A DNA stretch of 59,964 nucleotides from Catajapyx aquilonaris (lineage: Eukaryota). Positions 14,455-57,627 of the stretch are shown here, in pieces (position 1 is the first letter of the stretch; every line of letters starts with the position of its first letter). Under the pieces are notes generated by a model that saw only the letters and a program-made list of their open reading frames with translations, ran no database searches and was not told where the DNA came from. The stretch is from the NCBI GenBank assembly GCA_000934665.2, contig KZ539130.1:1-59964 (forward strand), read 5' to 3'. A program made the translations under genes and the position numbers.

Positions 14455-16759
14455 GTTGCTGCGTACGTTTCTCCGGTGGCGCTTCTCAAGGGGAGGGGGG
14501 AAAATAGCAGCAGCCAGGCTGAGGCAGTGTGCTGACAATCGTACAGTGTAAATCCAATATATTGTCTGCCCTCCGCGTCTTCCACAAGACGACCAGAGAG
14601 AGGGCAATGATTCCAATAAAGGGAACCTTGCACCTTGCACTGCCTTGCAGGCCTGGAACGGTTACGCGTTACCACCCCTTCCCCCTATTCCCTCTATCCC
14701 TCCCATCCCCCCTACATCAGCTGTCTAGCATAACAGTTTAGGATCACTGTTCCCAAGAACTGTTGTTTGTTGGCAAGTTATGTCGCTGTGGCAGGCTGTG
14801 GTCAAAGAGGAGTAAGGATACTGTACATAATCAGAGAAGTCAGTGTATTGTGGACTAGTTATAGTAGATCTTGTCAGGTGTACACTTTTTGGGGGTCCCT
14901 AATTCCTTGGAGGGGTTATGAATAGCTTCGAAACTAATATTTCATTATTTAACTACTACGTTGTTTATGGCCTCACTTCCGTGATGCGCGACTTGGTAAC
15001 TAAACTTGTAGACCCCGCGTCATTTGTGTGGGAGATCTGAATAGGATCAGCTGCTTATAATTATTATTAAGTTGATATTATCATATAAAATATATATCTT
15101 AAGATGGGTGGTATGAAGCTAGACCAACTTAATTTACGTAACACAGGGATATATAAAAAGGCCACCAGAAGCAGTCATTCCCAGGTCCGCTCAGGTCATT
15201 ACGTAGAGCCTAGATCTATGTAGTCAACAGAGTCAACAACAAGCCCAAAGGAAATATAACATAGCTAATGGCACAAAATGGCATTGCACAATAATTCAAA
15301 CTACATACATTAATTTCTTTAATTCGTCCATGAATTCAGCTATTTTAATAAATATTTAATACATGGTATTAAATAGATTTGATAGTTACAAGCAGTTACA
15401 AGAATGCTGGTTACCTGTCTCACAAGATACCATCAGTATGTAGAAGGTTTCAAATATGGCTTCAATATTTTCAGATATCACAGTATAACTTATGGCACTC
15501 AATATTACAATTATGTTGTCAAAAAAAAGCATTTTTAACGATGAAAATAGTAGCCTACAGCCAAGCATTGCTCATGTGATGGGTGATAAATAATGGGGTG
15601 ACCAATGATAAGGGTCACAGAAGCATGGTGTATCAAGTGAATCACGAGTCATGCAGTGTATAACAATGTAGCCAAGGTGATGATTTGAGCTCCAAAAACC
15701 AAAAAAAATGAGTTAGCGCCGGCAATGCATTCCTCATGCCATGGAGTACATAATACCTGAATATGGTATTTAAAACCCTACAACAAAGCCGTCAAATTCA
15801 GGGGTGAAAAGCGACCTCCGTAACAAAAACCGCCAGCTCCATCCCCACTCGCAGAAAATCACAGATCAAAAACCGCCAGCTCCCACGAAACTAAAGCTGA
15901 CATGGGAGACAGTACATACTGCGAAGCTCGTACGGATAACGGCGGTGCGAATGAGATGCGCATTTAACAGAACACCTTGCGTAATGTAATGGAACGTTGG
16001 TATGTAAGCGTGGAATAAACTTAAACATTTACACGCCGGATAAACCTGTGTTTCATGTGTCCCTCACTCAATTTTGCATCAAAAAGCGCCAACTCCAGTC
16101 TGTTGCAAATCAAAAACCGGCCAGTGCGTGGCAGAATGGACGGTCCACAGCTCATTGGGTAATGGCGGATGATTTCATAATAACTTACCAATGGTTGAGT
16201 TGCTAGTAAAGGAATCTATAGCCGCTACATTCAGGTGTCTACGTTGACATACGGCGAAACTGTAGGTTTTTCTCGTTTTCCTCCGTTACGTTTATGACGG
16301 AGCCGTCGGTTTTTGATTTTCACCCCCTCATTTAGTAAATAAGGGAGTCAAATAAAACCAGCAAAATTGTCTTATAATATGAGAAAAATCATTTAATATA
16401 TTCAATTAAGAGCTAACCATAACTTTGGATTTAATGGAAATACTTTACTGTAATTAATCAAGATACAAGAGTCTCATCACTTTATTGTTAATGGTGAAAA
16501 TAAAGTTTTCATTGGCGACCACTAGCTTTTTTCCTCCAATATTGCATTTTGATCCATATACCCATATTAATTGGGTCAATACTCGCCCTTGACCATGTCT
16601 GGTTAAGGGCAAGTGTGGCCCCCTCTAATTATTCCAATTTATTCCACCAAAACAGAACAATAACAGTGTGATAGTACACCTTAACCTCTTACGTACCGTG
16701 CCGGAGCAGTTACACAGCATGAGATTCAAGACTCGTCAGAAATTCTGCAAAAGATACTT

Positions 16760-17298: not shown

Positions 17299-17631
17299 TT
17301 GTGGGTAATGCTTTCACCCCTTCCGGGGTATATAGCATGGACCTTTATTGTATTTTAGGTTGTTAAGTACATGGTGCCTATTTAATGAAAGCCCGGGCTC
17401 ACGGGCAGGGTGACAGGAGGGGATGTGCAAGGTGCAGTGCAATGTCGTAGCTGTGGTCATTTTGTGAACTCCCCCGGGTGGTTTAGTCAATTGGAAATAC
17501 CACCCGAGACGAAGCCAGAGATGACAACAAACTCTGCACGAGATGAAGGGGGTGTCCCCGGGCTGGGATCGAACCCGGGACCTTAACATCCGTGGGCGCA
17601 TACGTTACCGCAGCACCACTCCGCCTCCCAG
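17230..17631 (-). mobile_element. tRNA-derived SINE, family C, with (ATT)n tail
   Basis: B box GGGTTCGATCCC; 15-bp TSD GTTTAAATATACTAT at 17215-17229 and 17632-17646. Homologues at about 51070-51420 and 56757-57090. Confidence 0.85.
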
Positions 17632-23904: not shown

Positions 23905-26900
23905 TTAATCCGTAACCGTCAACCCAAGCAACTGCCTCACAACTTCTTGGTTCAAATTAGGCTCACTGCACATTGGGTTCCCACCCAGCAAAACAGATTC
24001 TAAAGCAGGCAATTTCTGCAATAAATTGGTAGAACTGGCTACATCTGTCAGCTTGTTTCTCTGAATGCGCAGATCCCTTAGGAATATACAACCTTCCAGT
24101 CCCTCTAGTGTTTCCAAATCATTATCATCTAAAAATAATGCAATGCAGCTCTGCAGGCAAGAAGCCCACCATAAAGACTTTAATCTGTTTCCACTCAGGT
24201 CTAGAGTGTGCACGAGACACAGGCGTTCAGGGTAGGCAACACGGGTCAGGTGAAGACCTGAAAGGGTTAGAATCTTGGGAGGCTCCTCCTGCGGCCAATT
24301 CCAGAGAGCCTGTTCAAATACAACCTCACTCAAGGTGTCTTGGTAGCAGTTCTTTCGATGGGGATCTACTTCCTGAAGTCGCTTTAAGGCTGCTTGGACC
24401 TCAGTAAAGTTCTGCTCGGCATCTACTGATCTCATCAGGAATACCGATGTCAGTAATGGCCCTAGAAAGAATTGTATGCTGTTTTATTACCAACTCCATC
24501 CAGAGGTGTAACATTGAAGCTGAACCCTCAGTCATGTAGTGTATGTAGTTATTTATTGGGAAGGTTTCAGGGGTCTAAGTGTTTATATTTGTAATTAAAT
24601 TGCAATTTTCATGTCTGGGAGTGCTTGGAAAAATTTCGCAGGGGGCTTAGGCCCCATTGTGGCAGGAATTATTACTGGTGTGTTGGATTCCACCCCATTG
24701 TTCCCCTCAAGAACTGCACGGAAGTGGTGAGAATTTATGCCGCTGGACATGGCCTTCTCAACGTTATTATAGAATAAAGACTGCCTCTCTATGAAGGTAT
24801 TCTGTTTCGCTTTCGGCACAACAGAGGATAAGCTCTGGCGTTCCAAATGAAACAGATAAAATGTTAAAAAACTGTGACATCTGGCTAGTATCTCATAAAT
24901 GTTAATGTTACATTGCCACACAAGAAGTTGTATCAAAGTCAGAACACTACAACTTATGCTACAGGTTAAGTTTTTCACAAGCTAATATCTTGAGTAGGTA
25001 CACTTAATTGATAATACAAGTGTTCAACATGTTACACTTTACTCTCTCCCATAAGTTGCATTACCTAATGCAGAATATTCAGAGAAGCAGGTCAATAGTG
25101 CCTTCTTATTATACCCAGGTCAAGCAAGCAGTAGGTCATAGCCCATGTGCTATAGTGGTGGTCCTCCAACATCACTTAAAAGCCGACTCCTCAGTTCTTT
25201 GCCTTTGTTCTTCCAAAAAGATAATTTTTCCCTTTTTAGCCAAAGTAAATTCTTTAAGGGGATACAGTAGCTTGGGGAGGGTGGTTTTCCTTCATTTTGT
25301 CACATCTGAAAACTCTTCCTATAATATCTGCACAGATCGGGGTCATTACCTTGAAAAAAATGGGGTTCTTCATGATTCCAGCCAAACACTTGTTTAGAGT
25401 TACCAACACTTACATTTTGCATCTGGTTCAAGATCCATAAGATCTCTACAGGTCTGCAGCTCCTCCTGAAGTCGCTTTGCACTGGCCTCACTGGTTTCTT
25501 TCCGTGGGCTCAGGCCCAAGTTGTAATGTGCAGTTCCTTCTTCCTGGCCTTCCTTCATCTCCACTGACATTGTCCTGACATGCTCTGCTCCCTGGTCAAC
25601 AGTAATCACCTTAACCTCTACTCTGCAAGCACTGGTGTTATCATCTGGGAGGTCTGCCACCTATCAAAAGTCAATACATTTTAACTCTACCATACATCTG
25701 TATATTTCCAACTTCCATCTCATGCTCAAAATGAATTTTCTCAGAACCCCACATTTGCATTTATACTTAGTTTTTTATGAAAATACTAAAGAATATCAAC
25801 AAGTAAGGGTGGGACATGGAGGAGTCCTGTTTTGATTCAGGATCTGCGATTTTTGGTGCACAAGATGGATAATATTGTTTATTAAATTTACATACCCCAT
25901 GTTAAGACCAGTGGCCTTTATTGGTGCCCTCATCACCATTTATGTAGATAGAGCCATTTCTTTTACATACATTTAAAAAAGAGTCCAGTTTGAGCACCTC
26001 TTGTTTGGTTATGTTAGTCAAGAGAAATGGCAATTTGTCAGGAGGGTGGTCAGAAAGAGAATTGCAAGGAGCATAATGGTGTGAAAGAAAAAAGTGAAAG
26101 CTATACCTCCAAAAGAGTGACAAACATCAGAGATATAGGGGTTGAAATATTGCTTTTGCAAGTTTCCCAAACTTCCAAGGGCTGCAGAAAGCCACAGGAA
26201 CTAGGGAGTTTCGATTCTAAATTTTTATAACAGTGGCAGCTGCCACCCAATATTTTCAGTCACATATTGGTCACAAAAACTTATATTCAAAGAAATCAAT
26301 GATTGCATAACAATTTGTACAGTGTGACAACTCTGCAAATGGTGTAATACAATGAGAAATCATAAATGTCAGTTTTAGCAAACAATATGTGACTCGCAAC
26401 TGGGTGCATTCCACCACTACCATAAAAAGTGAAATGTAATCCTGTGTTCTTGTGGCATCCTCTGACTCTTGGATGCTCAAACAAATTGCAATTTCACAAT
26501 ATTTCGACCCTGCTACCTCCAACATTTGCCACCATTTTGGAATATTACAGATTTCACTTTTTTTCATTCTAACTAACATGCACCACGTGCACCAAAAATC
26601 CTAGTACCAGAAGCAAAATGAACCTTACAAATTCCCACCCTTACTTGCAAGCATTCCTTTAATGTACCGACAGCCCTAACTTCCTTTGTAAAGACCTTTA
26701 AATAATTTCAATGTGAGTTAGTGGCAGGGTTGGCATGATTATAATCAATTGATTATAATCATTGATTATAATCATGATTATAATCAACTGATTAATAATG
26801 AAAAATCTTGATTATAATCACTAATAATAATAATAATAATAATAATAATAAGCCCATGAGGTAGCAGGTGTTATTTGATTCCACTAAAGAAGTTAAAATG

Positions 26901-29900
26901 TTGAAAGGCTAAAAAAATATCCTACCATAGAACCATAGTACCATGTACAGTCAAACCTCGTTTAACATCAGGGATAGCCGGATAGGTTCGTGACTTCGTG
27001 TAAAGTGAAACATTATTACAGTAATCATTTAATCTTATGGGAATTGGGAAATAGGGGGATAGGTTCCTGGGGGACCAGGTTCGTCATACATTTATCCTAC
27101 CAATAATCACAAACTCACCAGTCAAAAAGTTAAAAGTTAAAAGTCTTGACTCTTGACTTATTGTATATGTAGTAAAATACAGTTTAATTATCAGAATCAG
27201 TACATGAGAACATGACAGAGCCACAGAGGTAGTACATCAGGCACTGCTTTCTGCGTAATAAAGATACAGTAGTGTACAATAATACTGTAAGTGTTACAGA
27301 CTTACAGGTATGTACACAGGTACACTACTGAATAGTGTAGTAGGCTAGTCGCTCCCAAGTAAGCGGAATCCGTGTTAAACGAGGATTGACTGTATATTGT
27401 AGAATGCACTTTCCTTGGAATGTAACATGTTTGACAATATTGACATACATTTCTTGATTTTCTTCAAATGGTAGGTGGTGTTTTTATCAGGAAAATGAAA
27501 TAAAGTGCTGTACTACAAATAATAACATTCAAAATAATCCGATTATAATCAAAATAATCTGATTATAATCAAAATAATCCGATTATTTGATTATTTTAAA
27601 ATAATCATTGATTATTGCCAACCCTGGTTAGTGGAGTGCCCATGTTGAATGTCTGGAATAATACTGTCATTTGCTGACATGCATAAATACCACAATCCCC
27701 AGAACTCATGAGCTAGTGAGTGTTGACTAAAAGAGGAGAAGGAATGCATGTGCAAGTAAAATGTTTGGTGAATTGCCTTGGATGGACAGTCAAGCAAAAT
27801 TAAATCTTTTCAGTAACTAATAACTTTTCCACTCTGAAGCCCAAGCAATACATGAAACACATATCTGAGCATGACCATAAATGAAACGTAAACAAAGATA
27901 TGACATACCCATATCAATGATTTCAAGGGAGATGTCATTGGATTGCTCCATTCAACAGCTTCATTGTTTCCATTGCATCTAACATGCAGGGATTCTTTAA
28001 AGACAGGCCGTGACGTAACAGTAACCATCCTGAGAGCTGGGAAAGAAGGCGACTTATGAGGGTGCCTTCTGATCACCACTGCCACTGGCTCTGCAGGTAG
28101 TTCCATTGGAGCTCGCAGTCCCAAAAGCCACCTAAGGTAGAGCCATGCACTTTGGTCCTTTGGATCAGTGTAGGCAGCACTCCTCACAGCAGACATCTCT
28201 TCCAGAAAGACTGGCTCAGGAAGTGTTGGGTTCTCTTTAGAGCAATGAAGACGGGGAAGGAGGGCACTGCGGTAGTGCCAAGCTGAGTAGTTGGAGAAGT
28301 TGGCACCAATCTTCTCTTCACAGAACTGAAGTTCCTCTTCCAGGGATGCACCACAATGCTGAGCCACCCAGCGGCGGAAGTCCCAGCAATGAACTGATGG
28401 TAAGTGAAATATTCCAGAATTAATATACATTACTATATGTAAGCACTTACTTGTTAGAATACTAGTGATGTTACAATTGGAAAAAATTACTGTTAGCAAC
28501 ATCAACAATGTAACTATCAATTATTGGTTGTTCTAGTGCTATTCTAAGGCTGAGCACATTATGCAAGCACCAGTTTTCCACAAGATGGGTCCTTGCCTCA
28601 CAACCACTTCCAAGTTTGGCTTGTTTGTATTGAAACCACTGCTTAACCTTTGTGGACCCATGAATATGCATCTGAACTTTGTACCTTTGACATACATGAA
28701 ATACCCGCACTTCATTTATATCCCACTATTATCGAATAACCTCCAAAAATTGCAGCAGGATAGTTTTATGTGATTAACATAAGAAAGCACGCTGCAGCAT
28801 GTTTAGCAGGAAATGTGCAGTTGGTATATCAAAGCCCCAACGATAATTTTTTCTAGAAATATTTGCAATCTTGTTCAGGTGCAGTTCACTGGTCAGGTTT
28901 CATTTTATTCACTCTTGTATAATGATAAATTAGTACCATAACATGGGGAAACAATGCCTGTAGTGATTCCAAAAAATTTCATAGTTCAAGGAATCAATAT
29001 TAATTTAAACTGGAACTACTCACAATTTAATTTTTTTCTAACATCTAAACCTTAATACATAAGGAGAACAGTACAATTCCGTTCATCCATCTGCAATGCC
29101 TTGTTGGCAAGGCGCAGCTCCCTGTCCCATGCAGGGTTGGGCATAGTCTGGAGGGCCCAGGTGCGATGGTTCCAAGCCCCATATGACTTGGGATTGTTCC
29201 TCAAACTCTGCTCCACCAAGCTCAGCTCCCCGGAGAGGAGCACCTGCACCCGATCCTGATCACCGCCATCGTTGCCTTCATCCCCGCCTTCATCACAACT
29301 ACTCTTGCCACCTGCTTCAACATCTTCATTGGACAACCGCTTAATTTGGTATAAGAGAGCTTCCCGACGTACATTCCACAAGGAATACACATCAGGGTTG
29401 GCAGAGAGTATCTCTGCACTTACAGTCAGTATTTCAGTATCCAATTCCCCTTTAGAGCGCTGCAAATAATGATTAAAAACTGGTGTCATAATAATATTGT
29501 TATAAAAATGTGACACTATTATTTATGTTGCAGTTTGGGTGAGTGGAACCAACATAGTAATGCCTTCAAATTAAGACTAATGCTGCTGACTCTAAATATA
29601 ACAACCTCGGCTATAACAGATTCTCAGTTATAGTAGACTGATTTCTGCAGTCCCTTGAAGTCTGTTATATCCGGAGCCTACTGTGTAAATATTGCCCTTT
29701 TCCTAAATCAGACAGTTTTGAATAACCTATAAGTGATCAATATATCCTGACGTGAATGTGTGCAAAAAATGCTTTGCAAAGAGTTAAGCCATGTACACAT
29801 TAGGCTTGTCCCAATTTGTTGTTTAATTTACAATCACAGGTGCTCTTACATAAACTGCAAGTGTCCCTATTCATACACCATGCCAACCAGCAGTTGCTTT

Positions 29901-32900
29901 ATGCCGAGTTACCCTATTTTCATTAAAAGTTGAGACAAACCTGGCCTGACTTAAGTTATTCCCCTGATTCTAATCTAAACCTGCCACATATGGAAGAGGA
30001 GTATGTACCGAGTCCAACACTACATACACTAGTGGTTCCCAACCTTTTACCAACTGCGACCCCCTAAACATGTTTCCATAAATGTGCGCCTCCCCCCCGG
30101 CCCCTTCTACAACTACCCCATTTCCAGAAAACATACACTCTGTACGGCTGCAAAAATGGTTCAATTTACACAGAACTTGAAAAAAAAAAAAAAGTGAACA
30201 AAGGCTCGTGACCCCCCGGTTGGAAACCACTGGCATACACCCAAAAATCCAGTCTGCATTAATAAGTGTGCAATGTTCTGGTGAAAATTGAAATTGCTAA
30301 GAAATATAGCTACCTATTCAGGGTGTTTGTTACTAGTCCAGCCAACAGCCATCAGTGTATTCCTTGAGGTAAAAGAAGTCGACAATGTAGGGGGAAGAAA
30401 TGTCGAGGGAGCAACCGTTAACATGAACTTGACCAGAAACATGGCCAATGGTTGCCGAAGGCGCAGGATATGAGCGTAAAAATGTTGACTGTTGAGATTT
30501 GCAAGGTCACCTCTTTCACAGAAGTGATTATCACCGCTCATATCCTGCAACTTCGGCAACCACCGGCCAATGTTTCTGGTCGTCTACCTCATTAACGGTT
30601 GGTCCCTCGACATTTCTCCCCCCTACATTTTAGACTTGTTTTGGCCCAAGGAATACCCTGATGGAGGTTGGGTGGACTAGTTAGAAACACCCTGTAGTGT
30701 TTCTTACTAGTAGGTCCTCCCACCGGCAGTGTATTACTTGGCCCAAACCACATCTAAAATGTCGGGCAGAGAAATGTTGAGGGACCAACCTGTGACGAGG
30801 TAGAGGACCATAAATATTGGCCTACCCCTAGACACAGGCGGCAACACATACAACGCCTCTTTGTAGGGAGGTCCCCTGTCAGATGGACTTGCATACCTTA
30901 TAGGGGTTGCCTAGGGATGTAGGGAGGAGGATATGAGCGAGAGAATTATGACTGGTGGGATTTGCGAAATCGGTTCTTTAGGAGTCTGATTATCTTGCTC
31001 ATGTCCTGCTCCCTACATCCCTAGGCAACCCCTGTAAGGCACACGAGTCCACCTGACCTACAAAGAGGCGTCGTGTGTGTTGCCACCTGTATCTAGGGGT
31101 AGGCCAATCATTCTGGTCCTCTACCTTGTTACCGGTCGGTCCCTCGACATTTCTCCCCCCTACATTTTAGATGTGGTTTGGGCCAAGGAATACGCTGCCG
31201 GCGAGATGTCCTACTAGTAAGAAACACCCTGTATAAATAGGATTCATGAGATCCTTCTAAAATAACACAATATTAAAGATAGCCAAAATAAAGAAACGGA
31301 TGGTAAGAAAAAAATGTAAAATGGGGGGGGGGGGGAGGGAGAGAGAGAGAGNAGAGAGAGAGAGAGAGAGAGAGAGAAGTAATTCTTCTGGACATGATTG
31401 ATCATTATTCAGGATGGCTACAGATCTGCAACACTCTTCACACTGGCTAGTAGATCATGGCAAGGGTTGAAAATGAACCCATTGTTGGGGCTCTGAATAC
31501 ACTGTAGGAAATTTTGACGTTGTGGGTAAATTTGGGAAGAGAATGACCTACTTTGCTGGACTCAGCCCCTGATAATTTTCCTTGTATATTCTGCTTGCAT
31601 CGAAAGTAAATGAGCTCACCAACTGAACAGTACTACCCTTGGAAGTTCACAACTGGGTCTAAGAATGTGGGAAACTGATATTGTCCAGTTATTGCTCACA
31701 ATAAGCTTATTATGTTCTATTTCACTTTCTTAAAGTCTGGCCTGCTCCTCCTGCTTCTTTCTCCCACGCTAACTTATGATAATGCAGCCATAAGCAACCA
31801 AACAATTTTGAGCAATGCCCCTAATCCATATGATTCCTGTGTTGAGAGGGAAGGCAAGGCTAAAGCCTTGCCTTCCCTCTTCTCTATGTTTAGTTGTAAA
31901 ATGCATGGTACAAAATAATATGAGTTACACCTTTTCCATTATAATCTTCATGGCATTCCGATATGCAGCCAACTTCTTCTCTCGCTCCTTCTGCTTGAGA
32001 GCTTGCTCTTCGGCTGTAGTGCGTACTTTTATTCTCCCATGCTGAAAATAAAGAGATGTTATTGGATGATGTTCCTCCTCCCCTACTAATTTCATGAAGG
32101 TGTGCAATACTGTATTACAAAAACTAGCTATGATTAATCAGTTATTGCCTACCAACAGGTAAGATATTAACAGCTATTCAGCTTTTACATGCTTAAATAT
32201 TACCAGCTGTCCTATATTGTGCAAATATACAGGGTGATTCTCCCGAATGGAAACCCAAACATTCCTCAATAACTTTTTAACTTATGGTATGGTTCCCGAT
32301 GAAAATTGACATGTACTCACCTTGTCTCATGCCAAACAAGGTCTGTCTAAAGAATATACCAAAAGTGGTCCCCTCCAGCATCCAAGAATTTTTAAATGCG
32401 AGTCTGCAGATTGCCGAAGACTCCCGCAGATTGCCGGCGGGAATGGCTCAACTCCCGCCCGCCCACCTGCTTGGCGAGAGGGCATCGCAAGGCCAAGGTC
32501 CCGTTGCCTTGAGATGCCCTCTCGCCAAGCAGGCGGGTGGGTGGGAATGGCTGGGATCGCCGCCGTCAATCTGCAGGAGTCTTCGGCAATATGCAGACTC
32601 GCATTTAAAAATTCTCGGATGCTGGACCACTTTTGGTATATTCTTTAGACAGACCTTGTTTGGCATCATACAAGGTAAGTACATGTCAATTTTCATCTGG
32701 AACCATACCATAGTTAAAAAGTTATTGAGGAATGTTTGGGTTTCCATTCGGGAGAATCACCCTGTATGAGCAATCTAACAAAACAAATTGAGCAGGTGCT
32801 GTCCTATTTTTTGAAATACTTTTCATGATTTAAAACAATGTCTTTAAGACTGGCAGTAGGGTGTCAATAATACCTTGATAATACCAAGAGCTGATAATAC

Positions 32901-34839: not shown

Positions 34840-35840
34840 ATGAGCCTCACTCCCGACATTGTGGCCGCTGTAGTCTCCGGGATTTTCCTAATAAGCGCAC
34901 CTGACTCTGACTGCCAGCTTCATTGCACTCGGGCGGCTCACCGATCCCTCCCTGTTGATGGTGCCGATATTCGTTACTTTTTTGTACAGTGTCAAGTAAG
35001 TAGGCCTATAATGTGTATTCTTCAAGTTGGTATCTTCTATCTGTAATTATTTTCAGCCCTGACATTCAGTTCGAGGCTGCCGGCACTGGCCAAGTTTGCA
35101 GCGGGTACATACAATAAAAAAAGAAGAAGTGGTTACTGCAGGCGCTGTCCTACCCCTGGTGACCCTATTGAGCGACGGTCAACTGCGTGTTGCACAGCAG
35201 GCAGTGATCGTAGCCCTATCCAACATTTCTGACAAGTTTTCAATCATCAGCGCTGGGATAGTCAAGCCTCTTCTGGACCTCATCAAGCCCATCACCACTA
35301 TCGCTATAGTGTAAGTCCAGCATAAATCTTGAACATCATGATCAACTATTTCTTGTCTCCATTGTTGCAGATTGACATGTTGCGCAGAATCACCTGGACT
35401 GTCGTGTCCAACCTGTGCCGTAACAATAACCCATCGCCTCCTTTTGAGGCCATCCGCCGGCTCATTCCCGCACTTTGGCCAGCTAGTTTACCATATACGG
35501 ACAAGGAAGTGCAGGGTATGCCCGGCATGTGAGATTATCTACTTCATTTTATTACTTCATAATGACACTATTTGTCTTCAGCGCATGCCTGTCGGGCTTT
35601 CTGGCACGTAGTGGAAGACGGGACCAACATCCAGGAGGTGAGTGACTCTGGTGTTGTGGAGCACCTCGTGCAGCTCCTGGAGTCTGATGAGCAGTCTGTG
35701 GTCATTCCTGCTCAAAGTGATTCCCAGGATGATGTGGTGAAATGCAGGGCTCGACTCATCCATACTTACATCCCTGCTTTCTCATCCAAAAGACAACGCA
35801 GTCATGGATGTCTCCTGGAGTCTCTCGAACATGGTCTTAC
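34840..35840 (+). pseudogene. Unprocessed, frameshifted importin-alpha (karyopherin alpha 2/Pendulin-like) pseudogene
   Basis: ARM-repeat fragments in order: DCQLHCTRAAHR; PDIQFEAA then a frameshift into ALAKFAAGT; VVTAGAVLPLVTLL..VAQQAV..ALSNI; GIVKPLLDLIKP; LRRITWTVVSNLCRNNNPSPPFEAI; AHACRAF..IQEVSDSGVVEHLVQLL; DVSWSLSNM. GT-AG intron remnants persist (about 34996-35057, 35310-35370, 35516-35581). There are several frameshifts and deletions and no recognisable IBB domain. Confidence 0.8.
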
Positions 35841-36029
35841 AATAATTGTAAGGCCTGGGCACGGCTTAGGGGGCCTGACGGCGTTTCTTTGTCCGTACCA
35901 ACATGGGGTTGTGGCTAATAATTTCGTGTGGTTTCAGGTGCTGGACGTGCAAGAGGACGCGGGAGGGGACAACCATATACGTATATGTTTGATATATATG
36001 ACTGCAGCATCTGGAAGCAGTTATTCAGT

Positions 36030-36290
36030 CGTTCAAGGTGAATTATTTCTTAGCGAAAGAAACAATTTTGCACTCATGTTAAATGTGGATTGGTTCCAAC
36101 CTTTCAAAAACCGGAATGATTACTCGGTGGCTGTAATGTTCATTAGCACAATGAATCTACTATGACGAGAAAGCTTTTTATTAAAAACATTATTCTGGTT
36201 GGGTGTAATTCCTTCTATATGAGTAAGGAGCCTAGCTCGTTAAATTCCTTCATGGAGCCGGTGGTGGAAGAACTGAAGAAATTGTGAGTG
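36030..36290 (+). mobile_element. CACTA/EnSpm (Transposase_21/tnp2-like) transposase fragment
   Basis: FALMLNVDWFQPFKNRNDYSVAVMFISTMNLL* followed, with frameshifts, by NIILVG..IP..KEPSSLNSFMEPVVEELKKL, which is the typical animal CACTA transposase core. Confidence 0.7.
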
Positions 36291-37502: not shown

Positions 37503-40235
37503 TTACAGCTGATCGCAAATAACTTGAGGCACAAAATCTTGCTTTGCTGCGTTGGATATGGCATCCCCATACTTTTCAAGTCGCTGGGTCATCTAAAACA
37601 AAATTGTTCATTAATATGACGAATAAATATATCATTGCATGTGAGTTTCTGCAAGCTCTCAGCTAACACATTGCACCAGCGTTTCTCTACCGGGGTTTCG
37701 CAACCAATCACTAGGGCTTCTGCGAGAAATACTGATGAATAAGATAATCATATGTGCAACTCTAATGCAAAAGTTGGGCTCCCTGCAAATTGCACTGAGG
37801 GAGGTGATGAAAAATTGAGCATAAAAGAAGTACGAGAGAAGTTGGATCTTGCGGAAATAGTATATGGCATATTGACACATTAACTTTGGAAGCTTGCTTC
37901 AAAAGTATAAGGCACCATGCAGTGCATGTCAAAAAAATTCAGCCAGTTTCACTGTACTGCCCTCCAAGATGTGCCGCTTCAATGTCACTCATACGCGTAC
38001 TTCTTGTACCCATATGTTGGATTTTTCCTTATCCCCTCAGTGGAATTTGCAGGGGGCCAAAAACTTTTGCTTCAGAATTGTTTTTAGTTATTATTTGATA
38101 TAAATTATAATAATTGTTATGTAGGAGTTTCCTGAGTCATGAACATTATTTCAAAGGTTCCATAAGAGTAAGAAGGTTGAAAAACGCTGCATTACACTAT
38201 GCAAGCTACTGCTAAAGTGTTTTCTGTGTAGCCAATTAAATCGGTATCTCATTATTCTGCTGCTGTAAACATTATAAAGTTGAAAAACTCCTGCTTATTT
38301 ATAACAAGTGAAATGTTCATATCCAAAATAGACTCCCCACCAGATTGAGTTGTTCCCCAAACAGCAAAGTTCAACTAACTGATTACTCACCCTGAATCCC
38401 CACTTGTCCCTGGCCTGCCTGCACAAGTTCAAGTCCACCTCACAGATCAAAAGTCCATCATGAATGCGTGACATACCCTGATATAATGACAAAGGGCGAG
38501 AGGAAAAAAATCATTATTAGTAAGTGTTTGTGAGACTGTGAAGAATGTGAGCAGATTGAATGACATGTAAATTAATGTACCGGACTGCGGCTCCCGTCAG
38601 GAGCTGCCATGTAGCTGGATCCATAGAAGTGTCCAAAATCTTTGTGTGGAGGCTTTCCGTCTCCAGAGTTAAACTCATTTGGGTATATTTCAGTTCCAAC
38701 ACGGTTGATTGCACATGTAAAGTAACTGTTGGCAATGGCTGCATTGCGAGCCTCTATGGGCCACATTTCCTCACTGAAGAACAAGAAGTACAGGAGTCAT
38801 GACAGTGGATTTCACAATAATAAAATTAATTTGCTGGTATCTAATAATAATAACAGTCGAGTCATCAGAGACAGAGGGATCAATTTCAATGCTATCAATG
38901 ATGCATGAATGTGCAATAAGCAAAACCAATATTAAGAACATGATAATGACTTAGAGAACCCTATGCGATGTTAACTCGATTGTCACTATATATTTGCATG
39001 CTGGTATATCAAAGTGTCTGCCACATACCTCAGTTGAACAACGGTAGCATTGGGGTTGAAGACGATCTCAGCTCCATTTAAACCATACATCATCCAGTTT
39101 TGAGGGTGGTGGCGTCCATAGCAAATGTTAATAGCAATTTTGCCAAACTGAGTCTGAAAGACCGGGTGTCCGAGAGTGGACTCCATGTAGTATGTGGACT
39201 CATTGAAGTCTCCCTTTCTGGGGATGTGGTTTTTGCGGCTCTTTCCAATAATTTTTCCAGAATTGGAAATGACCACAGCTGTGTTCCACAGAATGTCTCC
39301 GTGGGCAGCATCACGTTCCAGTATGGGACTGACGATCACCATGTTGTAACGCTGGGCCAACTTTTGTACCAGCTTGATAGTGGGACCCTCTTCTGCAGAT
39401 TCAGCGAATTCGGTCCAGGGAAGCCTCTCTCGAGTACAAAATGCAAATGGCATCACTGTAGGCATAGAAAAAAAATATGTGATTTTCAGTGCCATAATCT
39501 GACTCTTTGTGTCTGGTCAAGGATATATGCAGCACGTTGTTTATTATTTTAGCCCGATCAGTTCCACTCTTATACGCAATTATCATATATTACATAATAA
39601 TACATCATTATATTTACATGCATTTGTGCAATATTAATGATAATACTTGATAATTAATAATTGATTGATTAATAATTATATCAATAATATTGCATACACG
39701 TTTTTAAATGACATATCACTTGGACTTACTCCAAGCTTCCTGGATGCAAAGGATGTTGACTCCGCAGAGAGAAGCAGCATGGATGATATCAGAAATGCGA
39801 TTGTGGAGGGCCTCTTTCTGATCACTTATGGGCGCAGTTGTAGGCAGAACTATCTGGTTTTGTATGGCACCAACTCTCACCAACCTGAAGATGAATGATA
39901 CCTATTATTTCATGAAAATTATGTGAATGCGTCACAAAATGAAAGGGTCTCACCTTGGGGGTCGAGTGCCTTCTTTGGCAGCACCACATTGAAATCCTTT
40001 CAGTTCAAATTTCTTCTCATCTGCTAGGGCGTGGGCCTCTTTTGGAAGCTCAAGAGGTCTGGTTTCACAGAAAAAGCAACTCGTTTAGTCAGTCAAACCT
40101 CAAATCTATCAAAATGACGACAACTCACTTCCAGGATTCCCCGTACAAGATACGTTTCACTTGCTTTAAGTCTTCACTGGGCAGTTTTTCCAGAAGCAGA
40201 TCCAGACTTTCAAATTGTTCTGACAGGGCGTCCAT
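37503..40235 (-). CDS. UPB1: Beta-ureidopropionase (beta-alanine synthase, nitrilase family), copy A, 387 aa
   Basis: Seven exons: 40129-40235, 39954-40058, 39730-39884, 39029-39455, 38581-38773, 38391-38477, 37503-37592 (1164 nt, in frame). The nitrilase triad motifs QEAW, SRKNHIP and NICYGRHHP are intact, as are [21 protein letters not shown] and [10 protein letters not shown]. Confidence 0.95.
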
Positions 40236-43364: not shown

Positions 43365-43822
43365 AGGGACACTCCACTCAAAATACAAGTTGGGTTCTAA
43401 AAATCGGGCAAAAAATCCTGATTCCGAGGGTAGTATAAGCAGTTTTTCTTAGAGAGGAACGGTAAGGCCAGTGTGAAAGCTGGAAGTGTGTCGTTCGAAC
43501 ACCGCGCGCGGGGCAGGTGGCGCAGGTGGCGACGGACGCCACCAGAGTGGAACCGGGCGGAACTAGACCAGGCACGCCTGGCGCGGCAGGCGCGGCAGGT
43601 GTTTACTGTGCGCGTTATACTTCTCCGGTTTGCCGCGGGATGGTGCTGTAGCGCCCTTCTTAGCAGACGACGCGCGACGTGTGTAGATATCAAGTAGATA
43701 TATGATTTTCCGTGATTTTCCGTGTTACCGTTGGGCGTAGAAAAAAACCGATTGCACATTCGGAATCAGGATTTTTTGCCCGATTTTTGGGGACCAACTT
43801 GTATTTTGAGTGGAGTGTCCCT
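43365..43822. mobile_element. Kolobok-type non-autonomous element
   Basis: TTAA TSD and TIR AGGGACACTCCACTCAAAATACAAGTTGG (purine termini, unlike the CC termini of piggyBac). Confidence 0.75.
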
Positions 43823-43878
43823 TTAAGCAAAATAAAGGTACTGTGCAGGCTGCCCATTGGGCGGAGCACACTAAACCC

Positions 43879-43889
43879 ATCATCATCAC

Positions 43890-43922
<33 letters not shown>

Positions 43923-43924
43923 TA

Positions 43925-44005
<81 letters not shown>
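43879..44005. repeat. (CAT)n(ATT)n microsatellite, tail of a retroelement 3' end
   Basis: Visible trinucleotide tract that follows sequence similar to the tail of the SINE C copy at 51320-51420. Confidence 0.9.
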
Positions 44006-44006
<1 letters not shown>

Positions 44007-44630
44007 TGTGGCTAATGGGAAATCCGACGCTGAACACACCTCTGGAACTGCTGCCACTTTTCCCGTTTCCGCATGGAAACAGGAAAAGGAAACACAAACA
44101 ATCGACATAAAACCGAACACACGACATCATCAAATATGTCTCCACACTCGCTGTGACTGTGCCAAATTGTGCCAACTCTTGTCTCCTGTCACTTGTTATA
44201 TGCATGGTTTAGCCAATTTCCATATTTATGACAGAATCCGACTCTGACCTACCGGTGCGTCGTATGGACAGCCCATTCAAATATCAAAATATTCAAATAC
44301 CGCGGGGATCAAGGCGTTTTAATGGCGCCTCATGGCACGAATATATTATCTCTTTATTTGCCTGTGATGTAGGCTACTCATTTGAATATTTGAAGCACGT
44401 CAAAATAAGACATCGCGCCTGCCAAACATTTTATTCCACATTAAAGTAGTAGAAATTCAGCCGGGCTCGTTCCTTTCGATTTAATTAATTAATCCTTTTA
44501 AAAGCTGTTCGGTTGCATCTGGCATCCCTTGAATTCTGTCCGTTGGTTGGGAGCCATTTTGTTCCACGGTAGTTAGAGATTTTGTTCCTCGGCGTTCCAT
44601 ATTCCATCAGCCAGCTAGGTTATTATAACG

Positions 44631-46487
44631 ATGGCGGCCCCGGGGTATGGACGAGCGTCTTTCGTCGCCCCGAGCCTCAATATGCATGTGAGCAAGGCGT
44701 CTGCAGAGGGGCTCCCTGGACTCCTGGAGCACATGGCTAAGCCCACGGCCACCCTCACCTGGCTGTCCATGGATAGGCTCGTCCTTGCCCTCAGGATGGC
44801 CAAGGTGAGTCCATCAGAACCATCTGTATAGCTGACATAATCTTCTATTATTTCAAAAGAATGAGAAGAGGCTGACCAAGGGTCAAGTTTCTACACTGAC
44901 CACCATCCTGACCAAGGCATATGTAAAGAATCAGTTGACTGAGGATATGATTGGCTTGGTGACTTCTATTGTCTCGGTCCTGGTTGATTGGAATGTGGAC
45001 CTAATTCAAGTTGGGTTCCCCACTGCTTGGGGTGACTGCTCTGCGATGATCGCGCTGTTCTACACCCTGACTGGCGACTGGGATATGAGCACGGCTTGCT
45101 GGCTGTGGAAGCCACTGCATCAGACCTTGATGATGACCAATGCACTTCCAGAGAGGAGGCTGGAAGCAAGTGAGGTCATGGGCCAGGTTTTGGAATATTT
45201 TCCAAATGGGATTATGCCTGCCTTTGCCGACCGGAACAGAGAGGAGTTGTATGTATTGTCACAGTTTGTATATGAAATAGTAGACCATGCAGATACACTG
45301 CAACACATTGTTCCATTCTGAACAGGTCAGAAATGAGCGCAGCACTGGTTCAGATGGGTTACTACCCCCTCCAAGAAAAGTGCGTGATGTGCCTGGAGTA
45401 CATATTCCGCACTTGTCAGAGTGACGAAGCATTGTTGAAGGATTGGTTTCCATACAAGAAGATGAAGCATGCCAAGTTCCCTCACACCACCGCCAACTTG
45501 GCACAGGTTGTTGTCACAGTTCATTCTTACATCTTACAGTTAGATGTAACAGCAGTACTCATGCCACAATTGTTTTCAGGATTGCCGTTTGTTCTTAAAC
45601 TACCTGAACCTTTCTGCACTATCCAACAGAACCGTATTTACATACATTTGTAACTGCTTCTTCTTGGGTGATCTGGAGCTTCATCCCTATGTAAGTTGAC
45701 ATGAGCCATTAAGTGTGGCTGATAAATTACAAATACTGCAAGGGCATTATTTTATATAAAGAATTATTGTCGCGTTTTAATTGTGATTGACGATGACAGC
45801 CTGCTTTGGCCTTATAGTTAGTAATTGCATGATTGCATTTGCATGTAATTGCAAGGTGGATGTGGCATGGTGACCCAAATCTTTCTCTACATGACGTACC
45901 CGTACTCTTTCCCTGACCACCATATTATTAGTTTTTGGGTGATAAAGTGCTTACATTAAATATATCACTTTCTGCAGAAGCCAGTCAACCGTAACTGGTG
46001 GGTAGACATCAATGTTGGTACCCATTCGCTTGGTGTCAGTGTCCAGAGACCCGAGCCAGGCAATCCTGATCTCACTGGATACGATGAGAAACAAGATCTG
46101 GAACTTAGCTGCCGCTGGGTGCGGCGCGTGAAGGTGCTTGCCCCCAAAAGTAGGAGGGGACCACTCCTGGAGTTTGACATGGCAGTGGATGCAATGTATC
46201 TCTTGGGCCGGGAGTTACCCAAGGTTCTTAGCAGGAAGCCCAAGGGACATATGATACATATTTTGTTGGGTGGAACTAGGGGAGCTCCTGAGAATGGTGG
46301 TGGAGATGAAGGTGAGGAGGAATGGAGTTATGAAGCCTTTGATGTGTTGCTGAGTGCCCTGCGCAGTATGTTTGAGCAGAGGGCTGTGGTGCCTGAGGTG
46401 GTCTACGATGACAACGAACTGCCCTCCAGGGAGTGGTGTGCAGTCGAGGAGGTTAGTTTGGGGGAAACTGAGGATGTGATCGCATGA
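44631..46487 (+). CDS. SYCP2/SYCP2L-like protein (ARM-like plus PH/Spt16M-like N-terminal module only), about 454 aa
   Basis: Exons 44631-44804, 44860-45248, 45326-45506, 45580-45690, 45978-46487. All introns are GT-AG and the 1365-nt join is open. Motifs MGYYPLQEKCVMCLEYIFR..DWF, DCRLFLNYLN..RTVFTYIC..FLGDLEL and WWVDINVGTHSL are colinear with remembered vertebrate SYCP2 motifs AGDYDLQV..EALCR..QWF, DCRIFLNLVN..RRVFTFPC..AFL and FWIDFNLGSQTL. The gene model is more certain than the family call. Confidence 0.75.
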
Positions 46488-48398
46488 TAACATCCCTATT
46501 CAAAGTTGTCTTCAAAATCATAGGGCCCACTGCCTTAACTTAATACAACCTGCCTAGCCAATCCAAGCAGGATAATAGACCCGTAATGCATATTCAACTA
46601 TACCTTTCCCTGCTCCTTTTCATGGTAAAGAATCCAAGATAGCACATTACAAAACAAGTTCGATGAACAACTGATTTTCACACGCCTTTGAAAGTACTTG
46701 CATCAGCTTGCATCATGACATTAAAATATTGTTTGCAGAGGATCACCATACTGGCTGACACCCTAGGATTGCACCATTAATCACGACATGATTGGAGATC
46801 CCATCACTAGAAGACTAGCTGGAATCAACAATCCTCATCATCATCATCAATCATCAAATCTTTCCCATCCTGCCAATCCTGGTGTTTTTTTTTCTCATTA
46901 AGTTTGTCTTTCATCCTCTGGTGTGGGCTACCAATCCACCAAATCAAGGAAATCAGTAGGCGGAATATGACGAGTTGACCAGTGCCACCCAAAAAAAGGG
47001 TTCACAGGGTCATTAAAGCAGGTCACTTTATGTGCATCTTTCATCCCATGGTGTGGGCTACCAATCCACCAAATTTCATGAAAATCCGCGAGTGGCACTT
47101 AGAAAGTGTCCCTTATTGTTAGCAGATGTCAAGAAATAGAGGCACATCAATGGTTCCCATTTACTGATTGGCATAAGCTACACAGGATTTTTTTAAATGT
47201 TCAAGTAGCATAGGGATCAATACCATATATAATTTTTATATTCATGCACATTAAAGGTGCACTCAATAATAACACATGTAACAAATTTTAACTTTATGTT
47301 TGTGTTAGGGCATTTATTGTGTGTTTCAGTTTCCCCGTGTCTAGAAAGTACAGAAAATGGCAATTATGGTGTAAAAAGTTTGCTTTTGTGACCAGGACAA
47401 TCATATGTATACAGGGCGATCACAGAAGAAGGGGACCCGGCTAAATTCTTTTTAACTTATTAGAGTAAAGTTTTTAACTTATTAGAGTAAAGTGATGTGC
47501 AGTACAATCGTAAATCTAGAAAAACCACACATTTCTAAATATTGTCTTTGTTTTGAAGTAGAAATAAACATTACTTTTGATCTAGATGTTGTCTGTTTAT
47601 AAAAATTGAAATTTGTTACCCAAGTACGTATATGGGGATATGCAAAATATATAAGTCATTCTCCTGAGCACAAAGGCAAACTTTGGCAGGTATAATGGCC
47701 ATTATCTCAAGTTTTTAGGCATAAGAAAGCAGGACATAACACTCACTTGCCAAACACAAAAAGTGTGTTACATAGTGGATAATGCACAACATGACGTTGT
47801 TCCAACCAGATACGGGCACTGACGTCACAATAGTAACAATGATTTCAACACTGTCACCCATGAAGGCATTCTGTAAATTCTTACGGTATGTATTGTTTAT
47901 TTGGTAGACTACAATGTTACAAAAAATATGGTAAAGATGCATAACTGAATATACTATTTTATGCTAGTAACTTACCCATAAGTTTTGTGCAAGAATAACA
48001 TAATGGTAGGTTTATTACCATGGTAGTAAAACCTTATGTTACTCATAACGTACGTAGGTCGTAGCTACAGGGTATGGCCTACAGATGACATTTAGCAGTT
48101 AAGGATCGAGTGATTGTACTTTTTTTAAAAACATGTATAGCATATTTTGATCTGCTGTTGTAGAGGCCAAAGTCATAGGTCGGACGGATCACACACAATA
48201 AACTTATGATCTGTGACATTTTTATTAGTTCTCTTCAGTGCAATCCCTTCCTGCTTCACCAACGCGGAACTGCATTACGACTACCAGGTACGTAGTCACT
48301 GCTCCGGTGATCTGAAGGCAGGAGTTGAATTTTAAAAATTACGATGTTACCTTGGCCTGAAGCGTATAATAAGTTACTGATTATAACTTATGGTAGTC

Positions 48399-51069: not shown

Positions 51070-51420
51070 AGGGGAGACTGAGTGGCGCCGCAGTAACGTG
51101 CGCGCCCACGGATGTTAAGGTCCTGGGTTCGATCCCAGCCCGGGGACACCCCCTTCATCTCGTGCAGAGTTTAGGGCCATCTCTGACTTCGTCTCGGGTG
51201 GTATTTCCTATAGACTAAACCACCCAGGGGAGCTCACAAAATGACCACATATGTCATTGCACTGCACTTGCACATCCCCTCCTGTCATCCTCCCTATCGC
51301 TCGCGGTACCCAGGCGTTACGGCAAAAGGACCAACTGTATCAAGCTTGTACAAATTTAAGCATAAATAAAGGTACTGTGCCGATGCCCTAGGGCGGTGCA
51401 CTAAAACCCAATTATTATTA
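51070..51420 (+). mobile_element. SINE family C copy
   Basis: Head and core match 17400-17631 (reverse complement); flanked by TTTTCTATTT direct repeats. Confidence 0.8.
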
Positions 51421-51709: not shown

Positions 51710-53271
51710 TTACACTTCGTCGTGAGTGACCTGAGGCTGGAAGTCTGGTTTTGCAGCATTGGTTATGGCCTTTCCGTACAAGTCCAGGCGCTGGGTCATC
51801 TAAAATGAATAAAATAGTTAATAAATTTGTTAATTTTATGTAGCAGAAGTTGGACTAACCCTGAATCCCCATTTGTCCCTGGACTGCCTGCACAAGTTCA
51901 GGTCCACTTCGCTGATCAGAAGTCCGTCGCGAACACGAGACAAGCCCTGATAACACAAGGAAGTCATAATGAGTTCATTGGCATTATCTAGAACCTTATG
52001 CAATGGATAATAAATTATATACAGGGCTGCGGCTTCCGTCCGGTGCAGCAAAATAGGTGGACCCATAGAAATGTCCAAAATCGTTATGGGCAGGCTTTCC
52101 GTCTCCAGAGTTGAACTCCGTGGGGAAGACCTCGGTACCAATACGGTTGATTCCGCAAGTAAAGTAGCTGTTAGCAATAGCAGCATTACGAGCCTCGATG
52201 CCCCACATAGGCTCACTAAAAAAGGAAGTCATCTATAGTTATGCCACACTTATAAAACCTACTATGCAGACTTACCTGAGAGATACAGTGGTGCAGGATG
52301 GGTTGAAGACGATCTCGGCCCCATTGAGGCCATACATCATCCAGTTCTGGGGATGGTGTCGGCCATAGCATATGTTGATGGCTACCTTCCCAAACTGGGT
52401 CTGGAAAACCGGATGTCCCAGAGTGGACTCCATGTAGTAATGGGACTCGTTGTAGTCGCCCTTCCTGGGGATGTGGTTTTTGCGGCTCTTCCCGAGCACC
52501 TTGCCTGTGTTGGAAATGACAACAGCACAGTTCCACAGCACCTCACCATGAGTAGCATCTCGCTCCAGGATGGGGGAAATGATGACCATGTTGTAGCGCT
52601 GGGCCAGCTTCTGCACCAATTTCGTGGTGGGGCCATCTTCGGCAGATTCAGCAAATTCGGTCCAGGGAAGGCGCTCGCGAGTGCAGAAAGCGAATGGCAT
52701 CACTATAGGAGAAAAAATTGAAAATTAAGCTTCTGAGGGGTTGGTGGATTCACCCATTTCTGGAACTTGACTTACTCCAGGCTTCTTGCAGGCAGAGGAT
52801 GTTGACGCCGCAAAGATGAGCTGCATGAATGATATCTGCCAGGCGCCGGTGAAGAGCCTCTCTTTGTTCGTTCACTGGAGCCGTAGTGGGCAAGACAATC
52901 TTGTTCTGAATGGCAGCAACCCTCACAATCCTACCAAAAGCAAGTTCATGAACTCATTGCTAGTAACAACAACATTTTACCAAATCTCACCTGGGTTGGC
53001 GAACGCTTTCCTTCTCAGCTCCGCACTTGAAGGCCTTCAATTCAAAGTTCTTCTCCTCGGCCAGTTTCTGAGCCTCTTTTGAAATATCCAGTGGTCTGCA
53101 GTGTTATAACCAATGTTTAAGCCAACATGAACAACTATCGGAGTTTGACTAAAATACTCACGTCCATGATTCCCCATACAGGATTCGCTTGACTTCCTTC
53201 AGCTCCTCCTGAGGCAAGTGCTTTTCCAGAGTCAACTCCAAGCTCTCCATTTGCTCCGTAACACTATCCAT
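51710..53271 (-). CDS. UPB1: Beta-ureidopropionase, copy B, 388 aa (possible 24-aa N-terminal extension from exon 53390-53464)
   Basis: Seven exons: 53162-53271, 52991-53095, 52776-52930, 52276-52702, 52023-52215, 51860-51946, 51710-51799 (1167 nt). Exons 2-7 have the same sizes as in copy A (105/155/427/193/87/90). Catalytic E-K-C motifs are intact. AATAAA at 51645-51650 on the minus strand. Confidence 0.95.
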
Positions 53272-53838
53272 TTTTGGCTCTTCGGGACTGGCTGAGGACT
53301 ACAGATTCTCATTACTTATTTAAATCTAACAGCTAAATATGGACTAATGGAGACGAAAGGATGAGGCCACGCCATGCCTTATTCCTTACCCCGATCAGAG
53401 ATGAGAACCAACCATCGGCGGTGTTGCTACTCATCCTTTCGTCTCCCTCCCGGTACGACTGAACCTAGCAGCACAAAAAAATGCATCAACATAGATACAA
53501 TTACATATCCCTGTAACGTACAAGTAATGCAGAGTGAAATCTACACTGATAGTACATTAGAAATTCTGTCCTTTTAATGCAGGTGTCCTCTCAACCCAAA
53601 TGTTATCATATCGAATAATTTTCAAGAAAATAAATCATCAGAAATTATGCTAATGAAGATAGGGTTATTGACAAAACTGAATTAAAAGCAAAAGAAATTT
53701 GCAAATATTAACAGTTAACCTATCAGTTACTGTTGCCCTAAATAAGGAAATTACGAATAGAGCTTGGAATATTTTGCCCTGCTACATTTTAGCAGATTAG
53801 TTAAGTCAGTATAGCAGGTACCGTAAATAGAACGTTAC

Positions 53839-56319: not shown

Positions 56320-57627
56320 GGCCTGCACGATTTTTCTTACTAGTATGTCACCAGTGGAGACTACGCATTGGCCCAAAACAAATCAAAAATGTAGGGGGAA
56401 GAAATGTCTAGGAACCAACCGGCAACAAAGTAGACAACCTGACGCATTGGCCGACCCCTACACACACGCGGTAACACAGGTGACACCTTTTTGTGACCCA
56501 GCAGTGGTTGGGGGCCGTCCATAATCTGCGCGGACAAGTGAAGGGGGGGAGGGGAGTTGCACTTTGTCCGCTTTTGTCCGTACAGGGGAGTGGGGGTAGA
56601 AGTATGTTGTACGCGTGGACAATAAACGTCAAATTAATATGAAGGACTTGGCCGTTTTTTAGTCAGACCCGTCAAATATACCAAATTTGTCAAATTTGTG
56701 TGCAGATATCAAAAAATACAAATACAAATGTAGGCCTGTTGAAAATAACACTTTCATGGGGAGGTGAAGTGGTGCTGTGGTAATGCTCGCGCCCACGGAT
56801 ATTAAGGTCCCGGGTTCGATCCCCACCCGGGGTTCCCACCTTTATCCGTGCAGAGTTGGGCCATCTCTGGCTTCATTTCGGGTGGCAATTTCCGACAGAC
56901 TAAGCCACCCGGGGGAGCTCACAAAATGACCATTAGAGACATTGCACTTGCACTTTGCACATCCCTTGCACATTAATTAAGATCTTCTTATATGGCTCTA
57001 ATTTTCGATGGTGGTAATCCACCCCCCTAAAGGATATGGTAAATCCCAATGGGGTAATGCAAAAAACAACAACAACAACAACAACAACAACATACACACA
57101 CTTTCAGTGTGGTGAAAGGGGGGGGGGGGTCAAGGAGGCCATGTCAGCGCAATTTTTAGGGGGGGAGGTAAGATATTGTCCGCTTCTGTCCGCAAAGGGA
57201 AGGGAGGGAGGGAGGTAAAGAAATGAAAAAATATGTCCGCGTGGATTATGGACGGCCCCTTGCCTAGGGAGCAGGGTATGAATGTGATAATCATCATTAT
57301 TGATGAGATTTAGTGAGGTTGCCTCTTTCTTCGCAGTAATGATTATTGCCTGATTAACCGAAGCAGTTTGGAGGAGGGGATATGGTGTCCGACTGCTAAT
57401 TGGGAGGTCCTGGGATCAAATCCCGGTGCCAGCAACTCTGATGGTGGTTTTCTGTGGTTTCCCACGGTCCTTCCAGGAAAATTGCAGAGTTGCTTCTGTA
57501 ATTAATAGGCCACAACCGCTTCCTTCCGTCCCTATCCTATCCCAAAGAGCACAGTAAAATGAAAAGCAGAGTTCCAGGCAAAACGAACTTCCCCCCTAAA
57601 GAGCCGGTAGCTGATAAGTACGGGGTA

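Follow-up and report, generated by a model that had tools for sequence, protein, structure and literature searches.

A gene between two beta-ureidopropionase copies in Catajapyx aquilonaris may encode the head of a SYCP2-type meiotic axis protein without its coiled-coil tail

We analysed a window of 59,964 bases of Catajapyx aquilonaris DNA (GenBank assembly GCA_000934665.2, contig KZ539130.1, positions 1 to 59,964 of the forward strand). On the plus strand of this window we found a gene of five exons, called here the SYCP2-like gene. Joined from the window coordinates, the exons form an uninterrupted frame of 1365 bases, made up of 454 codons and the terminal stop. The gene stands between two copies of a beta-ureidopropionase gene (UPB1), in the opposite orientation. 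The features of the locus are as follows.

37522..40229, minus strand: beta-ureidopropionase copy A, with the 5' end towards the SYCP2-like gene and about 4.4 kb from it
44631..44804, plus strand: exon 1; residues 1-58; donor AAG/GTGAGT
44860..45248, plus strand: exon 2; residues 59-187 and two bases of codon 188; candidate armadillo-like part, predicted to be all-helical
45326..45506, plus strand: exon 3; last base of codon 188, then residues 189-248
45580..45690, plus strand: exon 4; residues 249-285; putative start of the Spt16M-like/PH domain and the only SYCP2 sequence match of the gene
45978..46487, plus strand: exon 5; residues 286-454 and the stop; candidate remainder of the PH-like domain, Gly/Glu-rich loop, helix and 34-residue acidic tail
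51729..53298, minus strand: beta-ureidopropionase copy B, convergent with the SYCP2-like gene, whose stop is about 5.2 kb from the 3' end of this copy

All four introns of the SYCP2-like gene (55, 77, 73 and 287 bases) have GT...AG termini, and their acceptors are pyrimidine-rich. Positions -3 and +4 of the start ATG are A and G, respectively. Upstream within exon 1 the frame is closed by a TAG at 44616-44618, in frame and 5' of the ATG. At the other end, the stop TGA is directly abutted by TAA, and two successive stops thus end the frame. A list of open reading frames taken from stop to stop breaks the gene into pieces of 70, 161, 125, 49 and 175 residues. An earlier reading made from the letters alone (the sequence-only reading) had described five exons with canonical splice sites, joining into an open frame of 454 residues that such a list shows only in fragments, and this description holds on both points.

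We scored codon usage with a training set of ten Pfam-confirmed open reading frames from other genes of the window, and found that the model frame was the highest of the six frames in four of the five exons. The scores were 33.7 for exon 2, 20.8 for exon 3 and 65.4 for exon 5. The exception was exon 1, where a reverse frame scored 19.1 against 13.4 for the model frame. The score was 0 or lower in all three plus frames of each of the four introns and of the 3' flank. The G+C content was 52% in the coding sequence (61% at third positions) against 37% in the introns. The runs of N in the window are at 12347-12384 and 31352, and none is near the gene. Codon usage and G+C content set the exons apart from the introns, and the five-exon gene model is real.

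Both UPB1 copies matched the Pfam family CN_hydrolase (E values 3.7e-35 and 4e-35), and the top PDB matches of copy B were beta-ureidopropionases (E 2.6e-77). This agrees with the earlier description of the gene as flanked by two UPB1 duplicates. The main exons of copies A and B have 127 of 145 residues in common, and DNA identity over four exon blocks is 67-80%, which indicates that the duplication is old. We considered whether a second copy of the SYCP2-like gene lies beside the other UPB1 gene, and rejected this: tblastn of the model against the window returned the gene itself, and the remaining matches had E values of 0.54 or worse. Arm-repeat open reading frames at 35-36 kb were also rejected as part of the gene, since UPB1 copy A, on the other strand, intervenes.

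The evidence for the family comes from exon 4. The open reading frame that holds this exon (49 residues, of which 37 are exon 4) had one match at E<=10 among 177,635 distinct PDB sequences. This was 5iwz_A, entitled 'Synaptonemal complex protein 2', which represents mouse SYCP2 residues 1-390. The match scored 21.1 bits, with E values of 0.0029 (whole sequence) and 0.017 (the stretch), and query residues 10-45 were aligned with chain residues 262-297 (36 aligned residues). In this alignment the D of DCRLF, model residue 249, stands at position 263 of the 401-residue chain. The match is therefore preceded by 248 residues in the Catajapyx model and by about 262 in the mouse chain, which makes it colinear; the two leads come out close because exon 1 is counted in the model. 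For six other pieces of the model, from exons 1, 2, 3 and 5, the PDB search returned no SYCP2 match and no E value better than 0.2, suggesting that such matches are not routine for short queries. The sequence-only reading had likened three colinear motifs of this protein to the SYCP2 head. The one in exon 4 (DCRLFLNYLN...RTVFTYIC) is borne out by the match to 5iwz_A, whereas those in exons 3 and 5 had no PDB match at E<=10.

The Pfam models for the head domains of SYCP2 are SYCP2_ARLD and SYCP2_SLD (PF18581). None of the five exon translations and none of four further pieces matched the SYCP2 models at E<=10. Because the domains are divided among several exons, and because HMMER filters drop weak partial matches, an exon-by-exon search does not test the whole protein fairly. 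The single Pfam match listed was SAPC2_N on exon 1, with an E value of 0.14 and 12.5 bits against a cut-off of 27. All our library comparisons were made exon by exon, on unspliced stretches, which weakens each result.

For membership among the SYCP2-type axis core proteins (SYCP2, Red1 and ASY3), we followed Tromer et al. 2021 and West et al. 2019. The inclusion criteria given by Tromer et al. are similarity to the last ARM repeats together with that to the PH domain, plus a C-terminal coiled coil (PMC8131943). Of the stretch that runs from the last ARM repeats to the end of the PH domain, the similarity we found covers 36 residues, in exon 4 alone, at the start of the mouse Spt16M-like domain (SLD). 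These 36 aligned residues suggest that the 454-residue protein belongs to the SYCP2 family, and the support they give is specific but thin.

Relatives of the gene did not appear in larger libraries. Exon 5 had no homologue at E<=0.001 among 1.84 billion representative proteins. Word-indexed protein searches with exons 2, 4 and 5 found no homologue among the proteins covered, which for exons 2 and 5 were the longer ones. Of the 39 and 91 pattern matches that came from two metagenome scans, tblastn upheld none. The silkworm study describes insect SYCP2 as too diverged to be found by blastp with mammalian SYCP2, so that PSI-BLAST was needed (PMC10151401). Given that insect SYCP2 escaped blastp, the absence of homologues in the libraries is typical of the SYCP2 family.

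To characterise the domain type, we examined the nearest families of exons 2 and 5 by a protein language model. The neighbours of exon 5 were PH-like families (RDR2 PH, RME-8_N, GRAM, syntrophin PH, BBS5, UBFD1 PH and Vps36) with scores of 0.76-0.81, and eight of its ten best neighbours fall in the same family or clan as the first. The neighbours of exon 2 were families of helical repeats of the HEAT/ARM type (MMS19_N, Xpo1/Cse1, HEATR5A, GCN1 HEAT and ARM_TANGO6) with scores of 0.84-0.85; as for exon 5, all scores were below 0.9. These exon 2 families are all alpha-solenoids. Just one of the ten best neighbours of exon 2 falls in the family or clan of the first, and the tool flags that first family as probably wrong. 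Since the neighbours are scattered over families, no single family is indicated. Single-sequence AlphaFold2 models were too poor to use for either exon: the low-confidence model of exon 2 was all helical, with six helices (mean pLDDT 44.9), and that of exon 5 had a mean pLDDT of 36.0. We thus treat the helical-repeat-like character of exon 2 and the PH-like character of exon 5 as leads only. The head of mouse SYCP2 is described as an ARLD followed by an SLD, within residues 1-390, and its solved structure as fourteen helices followed by a ten-stranded sheet with two flanking helices (PMC5498334). A helical part followed by a PH-like part, as predicted for the Catajapyx protein, is the domain order of the solved SYCP2 head.

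Exon 5 is predicted to consist of strands, a Gly/Glu-rich loop and a helix at about residues 400-420, followed by the tail of 34 residues. This tail is acidic and holds one arginine and no lysine. In mouse and silkworm, the closure motif is reported to sit directly after the head (PMC6349405; PMC10151401). The vertebrate closure motifs are described with conserved basic residues, R398/K399 in one case and R468/K469/K470 with KKMSE in another (bioRxiv 10.64898/2026.06.03.730022). We found no closure motif of the vertebrate kind visible in the 34-residue tail, and it lacks the basic residues that are conserved in the two mouse motifs. Closure motifs vary between lineages.

The following features lie around and beyond the stop.

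46449..46457, plus strand: possible alternative phase-0 donor, GAG/GTTAGT, after codon 443 (position 46451) and 11 codons before the stop
46720..46725, plus strand: candidate polyadenylation signal, the first ATTAAA after the stop; consensus match only
46739..46780, plus strand: possible alternative final exon, encoding 13 residues up to a stop and preceded by the AG at 46737-46738

An alternative splice from this donor had been proposed before, and we recovered both the donor after 46451 and the 13 added residues; the start of the exon needed correction by one base, to 46739. With a good donor 11 codons upstream, the listed stop could come from reading on into an intron, in a transcript that is spliced to exons further 3'. 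Further candidate polyadenylation signals are found at 47012 and 47250 (ATTAAA) and at 47563 (AATAAA), and dispersed repeats begin about 430 bases 3' of the stop.

We then looked for a coiled coil in the protein and downstream of it. By a composition scan that was crude and uncalibrated, we saw no coiled-coil-like stretch in the 454-residue protein. The same crude and uncalibrated scan found none on the plus strand of the window, where the best downstream stretch reached 16 of 28; the highest score in the window was 23, on the opposite strand at 31.9 kb. No plus-strand frame between 46488 and 51750 was coding-like: the best of 45 frames of at least 35 residues scored 8.8, compared with 33.7 for exon 2 and 65.4 for exon 5, in a scoring whose training set included the exons of the SYCP2-like gene itself and so favoured them. 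In the flanks (40.3-44.6 kb and 53.3-59.96 kb), no codon score on either strand exceeded 13.6. The earlier observation that no coiled-coil exon precedes the convergent UPB1 copy was therefore reproduced, as these 5.2 kb contain no coiled-coil-like or coding-like plus-strand frame. The head-only layout is supported only by absence. As to the second of the family criteria, a C-terminal coiled coil with a SYCP3-type partner, we found none, and the protein ends at residue 454. For this reason the protein would be a homologue of the head, and not a canonical axis core protein.

We compared these features with those of known systems. The closest likeness is to the N-terminal region of mouse SYCP2 (PDB 5IWZ, Feng et al. 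2017, PMC5498334), as the sole and colinear PDB match and by the order of a helical part and a beta-rich PH-like part that the two appear to share. The Catajapyx protein differs in that it stops about 34 residues past the head, and outside exon 4 its similarity to mouse SYCP2 is below detection. Among arthropods, it would resemble by description the full-length SYCP2 of Bombyx mori, a protein of 1,800 residues that has an ARM and PH head and is beyond the reach of plain BLAST (Xiang et al. 2023, PMC10151401). Again by description, it would resemble the divergent SYCP2-type orthologues of Lepidoptera and Diptera, which have an ARM and PH head and likewise escape plain BLAST (Tromer et al. 2021, PMC8131943).

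According to Tromer et al., SYCP2-type genes have been duplicated repeatedly, duplication of the coiled coil alone gave rise to SYCP3-type genes, and the ASY3 of seed plants has lost its ARM and PH domains (PMC8131943). SYCP3, ASY4, KKT16 and seed-plant ASY3 are thus tail-only derivatives, of which the Catajapyx protein would be the mirror image, a head-only derivative. Other SYCP2-type paralogues are reported to have taken on new roles, such as KKT17/18 and the diplonemid SYCP2L1 (PMC8131943; bioRxiv 10.1101/2024.08.06.606595). Compared with these neo-functionalised paralogues (vertebrate SYCP2L, kinetoplastid KKT17/KKT18 and diplonemid SYCP2L1), which accompany a canonical SYCP2-type gene, the Catajapyx protein differs in being without a coiled coil. 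For SYCP2L1 of Paradiplonema, expression in mitotic culture is reported and no closure motif is predicted (bioRxiv 10.1101/2024.08.06.606595). In the literature that we searched, mostly at the level of search results, no head-only SYCP2-type derivative was found.

We put the chance that the gene is an intact, head-only SYCP2-type paralogue at about even, and weighed three other explanations against it. The five exons may be the 5' portion of a SYCP2-type gene of the ordinary, long kind, in which the donor at 46451 or another one splices to exons that we did not recognise. Such exons might be short or compositionally bland, as expected of a disordered middle, or might lie beyond the UPB1 copy or outside the window. 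This is suggested by the consensus phase-0 donor GAG/GTTAGT 11 codons ahead of the stop, and by the size of the SYCP2 proteins described from arthropods and vertebrates, which have 1,500-1,800 residues and a coiled coil at the far end (PMC10151401; PMC5498334). Moreover, our scans covered only frames of at least 28 or at least 35 residues. However, neither the 5.2 kb before UPB1 copy B nor the region at 53.3-59.96 kb has a coding-like plus-strand frame (best scores 8.8 and 13.6), and the composition scan found no coiled-coil-like stretch on the plus strand of the whole window. In addition, a dispersed repeat begins about 430 bases 3' of the stop, and the nearest acceptor yields just 13 residues and a stop. 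We therefore regard a long gene as unlikely. Only slightly less unlikely is that the gene is a functionless partial duplicate of a SYCP2-type gene, an unexpressed or decaying relic of the rearrangements that also duplicated UPB1. The region is duplicated and carries dispersed repeats, and an orthologue was found in no library searched, as would be expected of a relic. But the 454 codons are unbroken and none of the eight splice-site dinucleotides is damaged, and the duplication of UPB1 is old, as judged from the 67-80% identity of the exon DNA. Third-position G+C of 61%, against 37% in the introns, and a strong in-frame codon signal are unlike the outcome expected of long neutral decay.

It is also conceivable that the gene is real and unrelated to SYCP2, being a lineage-restricted gene with helical and beta-rich domains whose 36-residue match arose by chance. 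The match is a single short one of 21.1 bits, the single exons have no Pfam SYCP2 match, and the other two proposed motifs are unmatched, all of which would fit a chance likeness. Yet the E value of 0.0029 applies to the whole PDB, and the single match was to the protein that had been named before the search, and it falls at a colinear place (after 248 residues in the model and about 262 in the mouse chain). A helical-repeat-like part before the match and a PH-like part after it also correspond to the domain order described for the SYCP2 head (PMC5498334). We consider an unrelated gene improbable, and the least probable of the alternatives.

If the gene is an intact head-only paralogue, its five exons would encode a 454-residue diverged homologue of the N-terminal head of the SYCP2-type meiotic axis core proteins. 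This head would comprise an armadillo-like helical domain followed by an Spt16M-like/PH domain, and the protein would end about 34 residues beyond it. The long disordered middle of SYCP2 and the C-terminal coiled coil, which is its link to SYCP3 in the axis filament, would be missing. Lacking the coiled coil, the protein would be unable to join a SYCP3-type filament or to polymerise. It could then act as a soluble module that occupies the ligands of the SYCP2 head. The ARLD of mouse SYCP2 is reported to bind CENP-J and CENP-F (PMC5498334), and the ARM-PH head is described as able to bind HORMAD1 (bioRxiv 10.64898/2026.06.03.730022). By occupying such ligands, the Catajapyx protein might modulate the full-length axis protein in germ cells, or compete with it. 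A more specific and doubtful proposal is that Catajapyx keeps, under selection, a separate gene for the ARM-PH head alone, alongside a full-length SYCP2-type gene. In germ cells its product, unable to polymerise, would compete for the ligands of the head (HORMAD, centromere or chromatin partners) or act as an adaptor for them.

The coiled-coil tail of the axis core proteins is well understood and builds the filament with SYCP3, whereas of all parts of the meiotic axis core the head is understood least. If the head-only reading is true, the Catajapyx gene would be a natural separation-of-function allele for this part, and would mirror SYCP3, which consists of just the coiled-coil tail. It would also suggest that very diverged meiotic genes remain hidden in arthropod genomes, as our searches of large protein libraries found nothing that resembles the SYCP2-like gene. 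A head-only gene would show that the ARM-PH module can function apart from the filament, and would offer a natural construct for probing the binding partners of the head.

Two copies of a beta-ureidopropionase gene (UPB1), both on the minus strand and in the same orientation, flank the five-exon SYCP2-like gene, which lies on the plus strand. The genes and repeats annotated around it are as follows.

Genes and dispersed repeats in the window (gene domains from Pfam)
3542-3958 and 14290-14661 (-), Kelch-repeat ORFs
23908-24483, minus, leucine-rich-repeat ORF
27813-29522, minus, prenyltransferase alpha-subunit repeats (PPTA)
35063-35311 and 35566-36162, plus, Arm-repeat ORFs (Pfam Arm, E 1.2e-07 and 4.6e-05)
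37522-40229, minus, UPB1 copy A
46922-47131, dispersed repeat, with copies at 6723-7052
51072-51294, short dispersed element of ~200-225 bases, with copies at 17404-17629 and 56768-56965
51729-53298, minus, UPB1 copy B

Judged on the exons seen, both UPB1 copies look intact. They share 88% protein identity in the main exon and 67-80% DNA identity across exons, and the introns are longer in copy A. The two Arm-repeat ORFs, upstream of copy A, are a separate armadillo-repeat gene.

By a crude composition score, the highest coiled-coil-like value in the whole window (23/28) was found at 31931-32014 on the minus strand. It falls inside a gene on that strand and lies upstream of the SYCP2-like gene, at a distance of 12.6 kb.

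Repeats were found on both sides of the SYCP2-like gene. About 500 bases upstream of its ATG is a long trinucleotide-type simple repeat (43700-44110), which reads as poly-N, poly-I or poly-L depending on the frame. The dispersed repeat at 46922-47131 starts ~430 bases past the stop codon and looks MITE-like; internally, a unit of 50 bases is directly repeated (46907-46954, 47037-47086), and the copies of this dispersed repeat near 6.7-7.05 kb occur in both orientations at 75-78% identity. Copies of the short dispersed element are 82-89% identical to one another, and next to the one at 51072-51294 a long simple repeat, rich in TA, occupies 50.95-51.06 kb.
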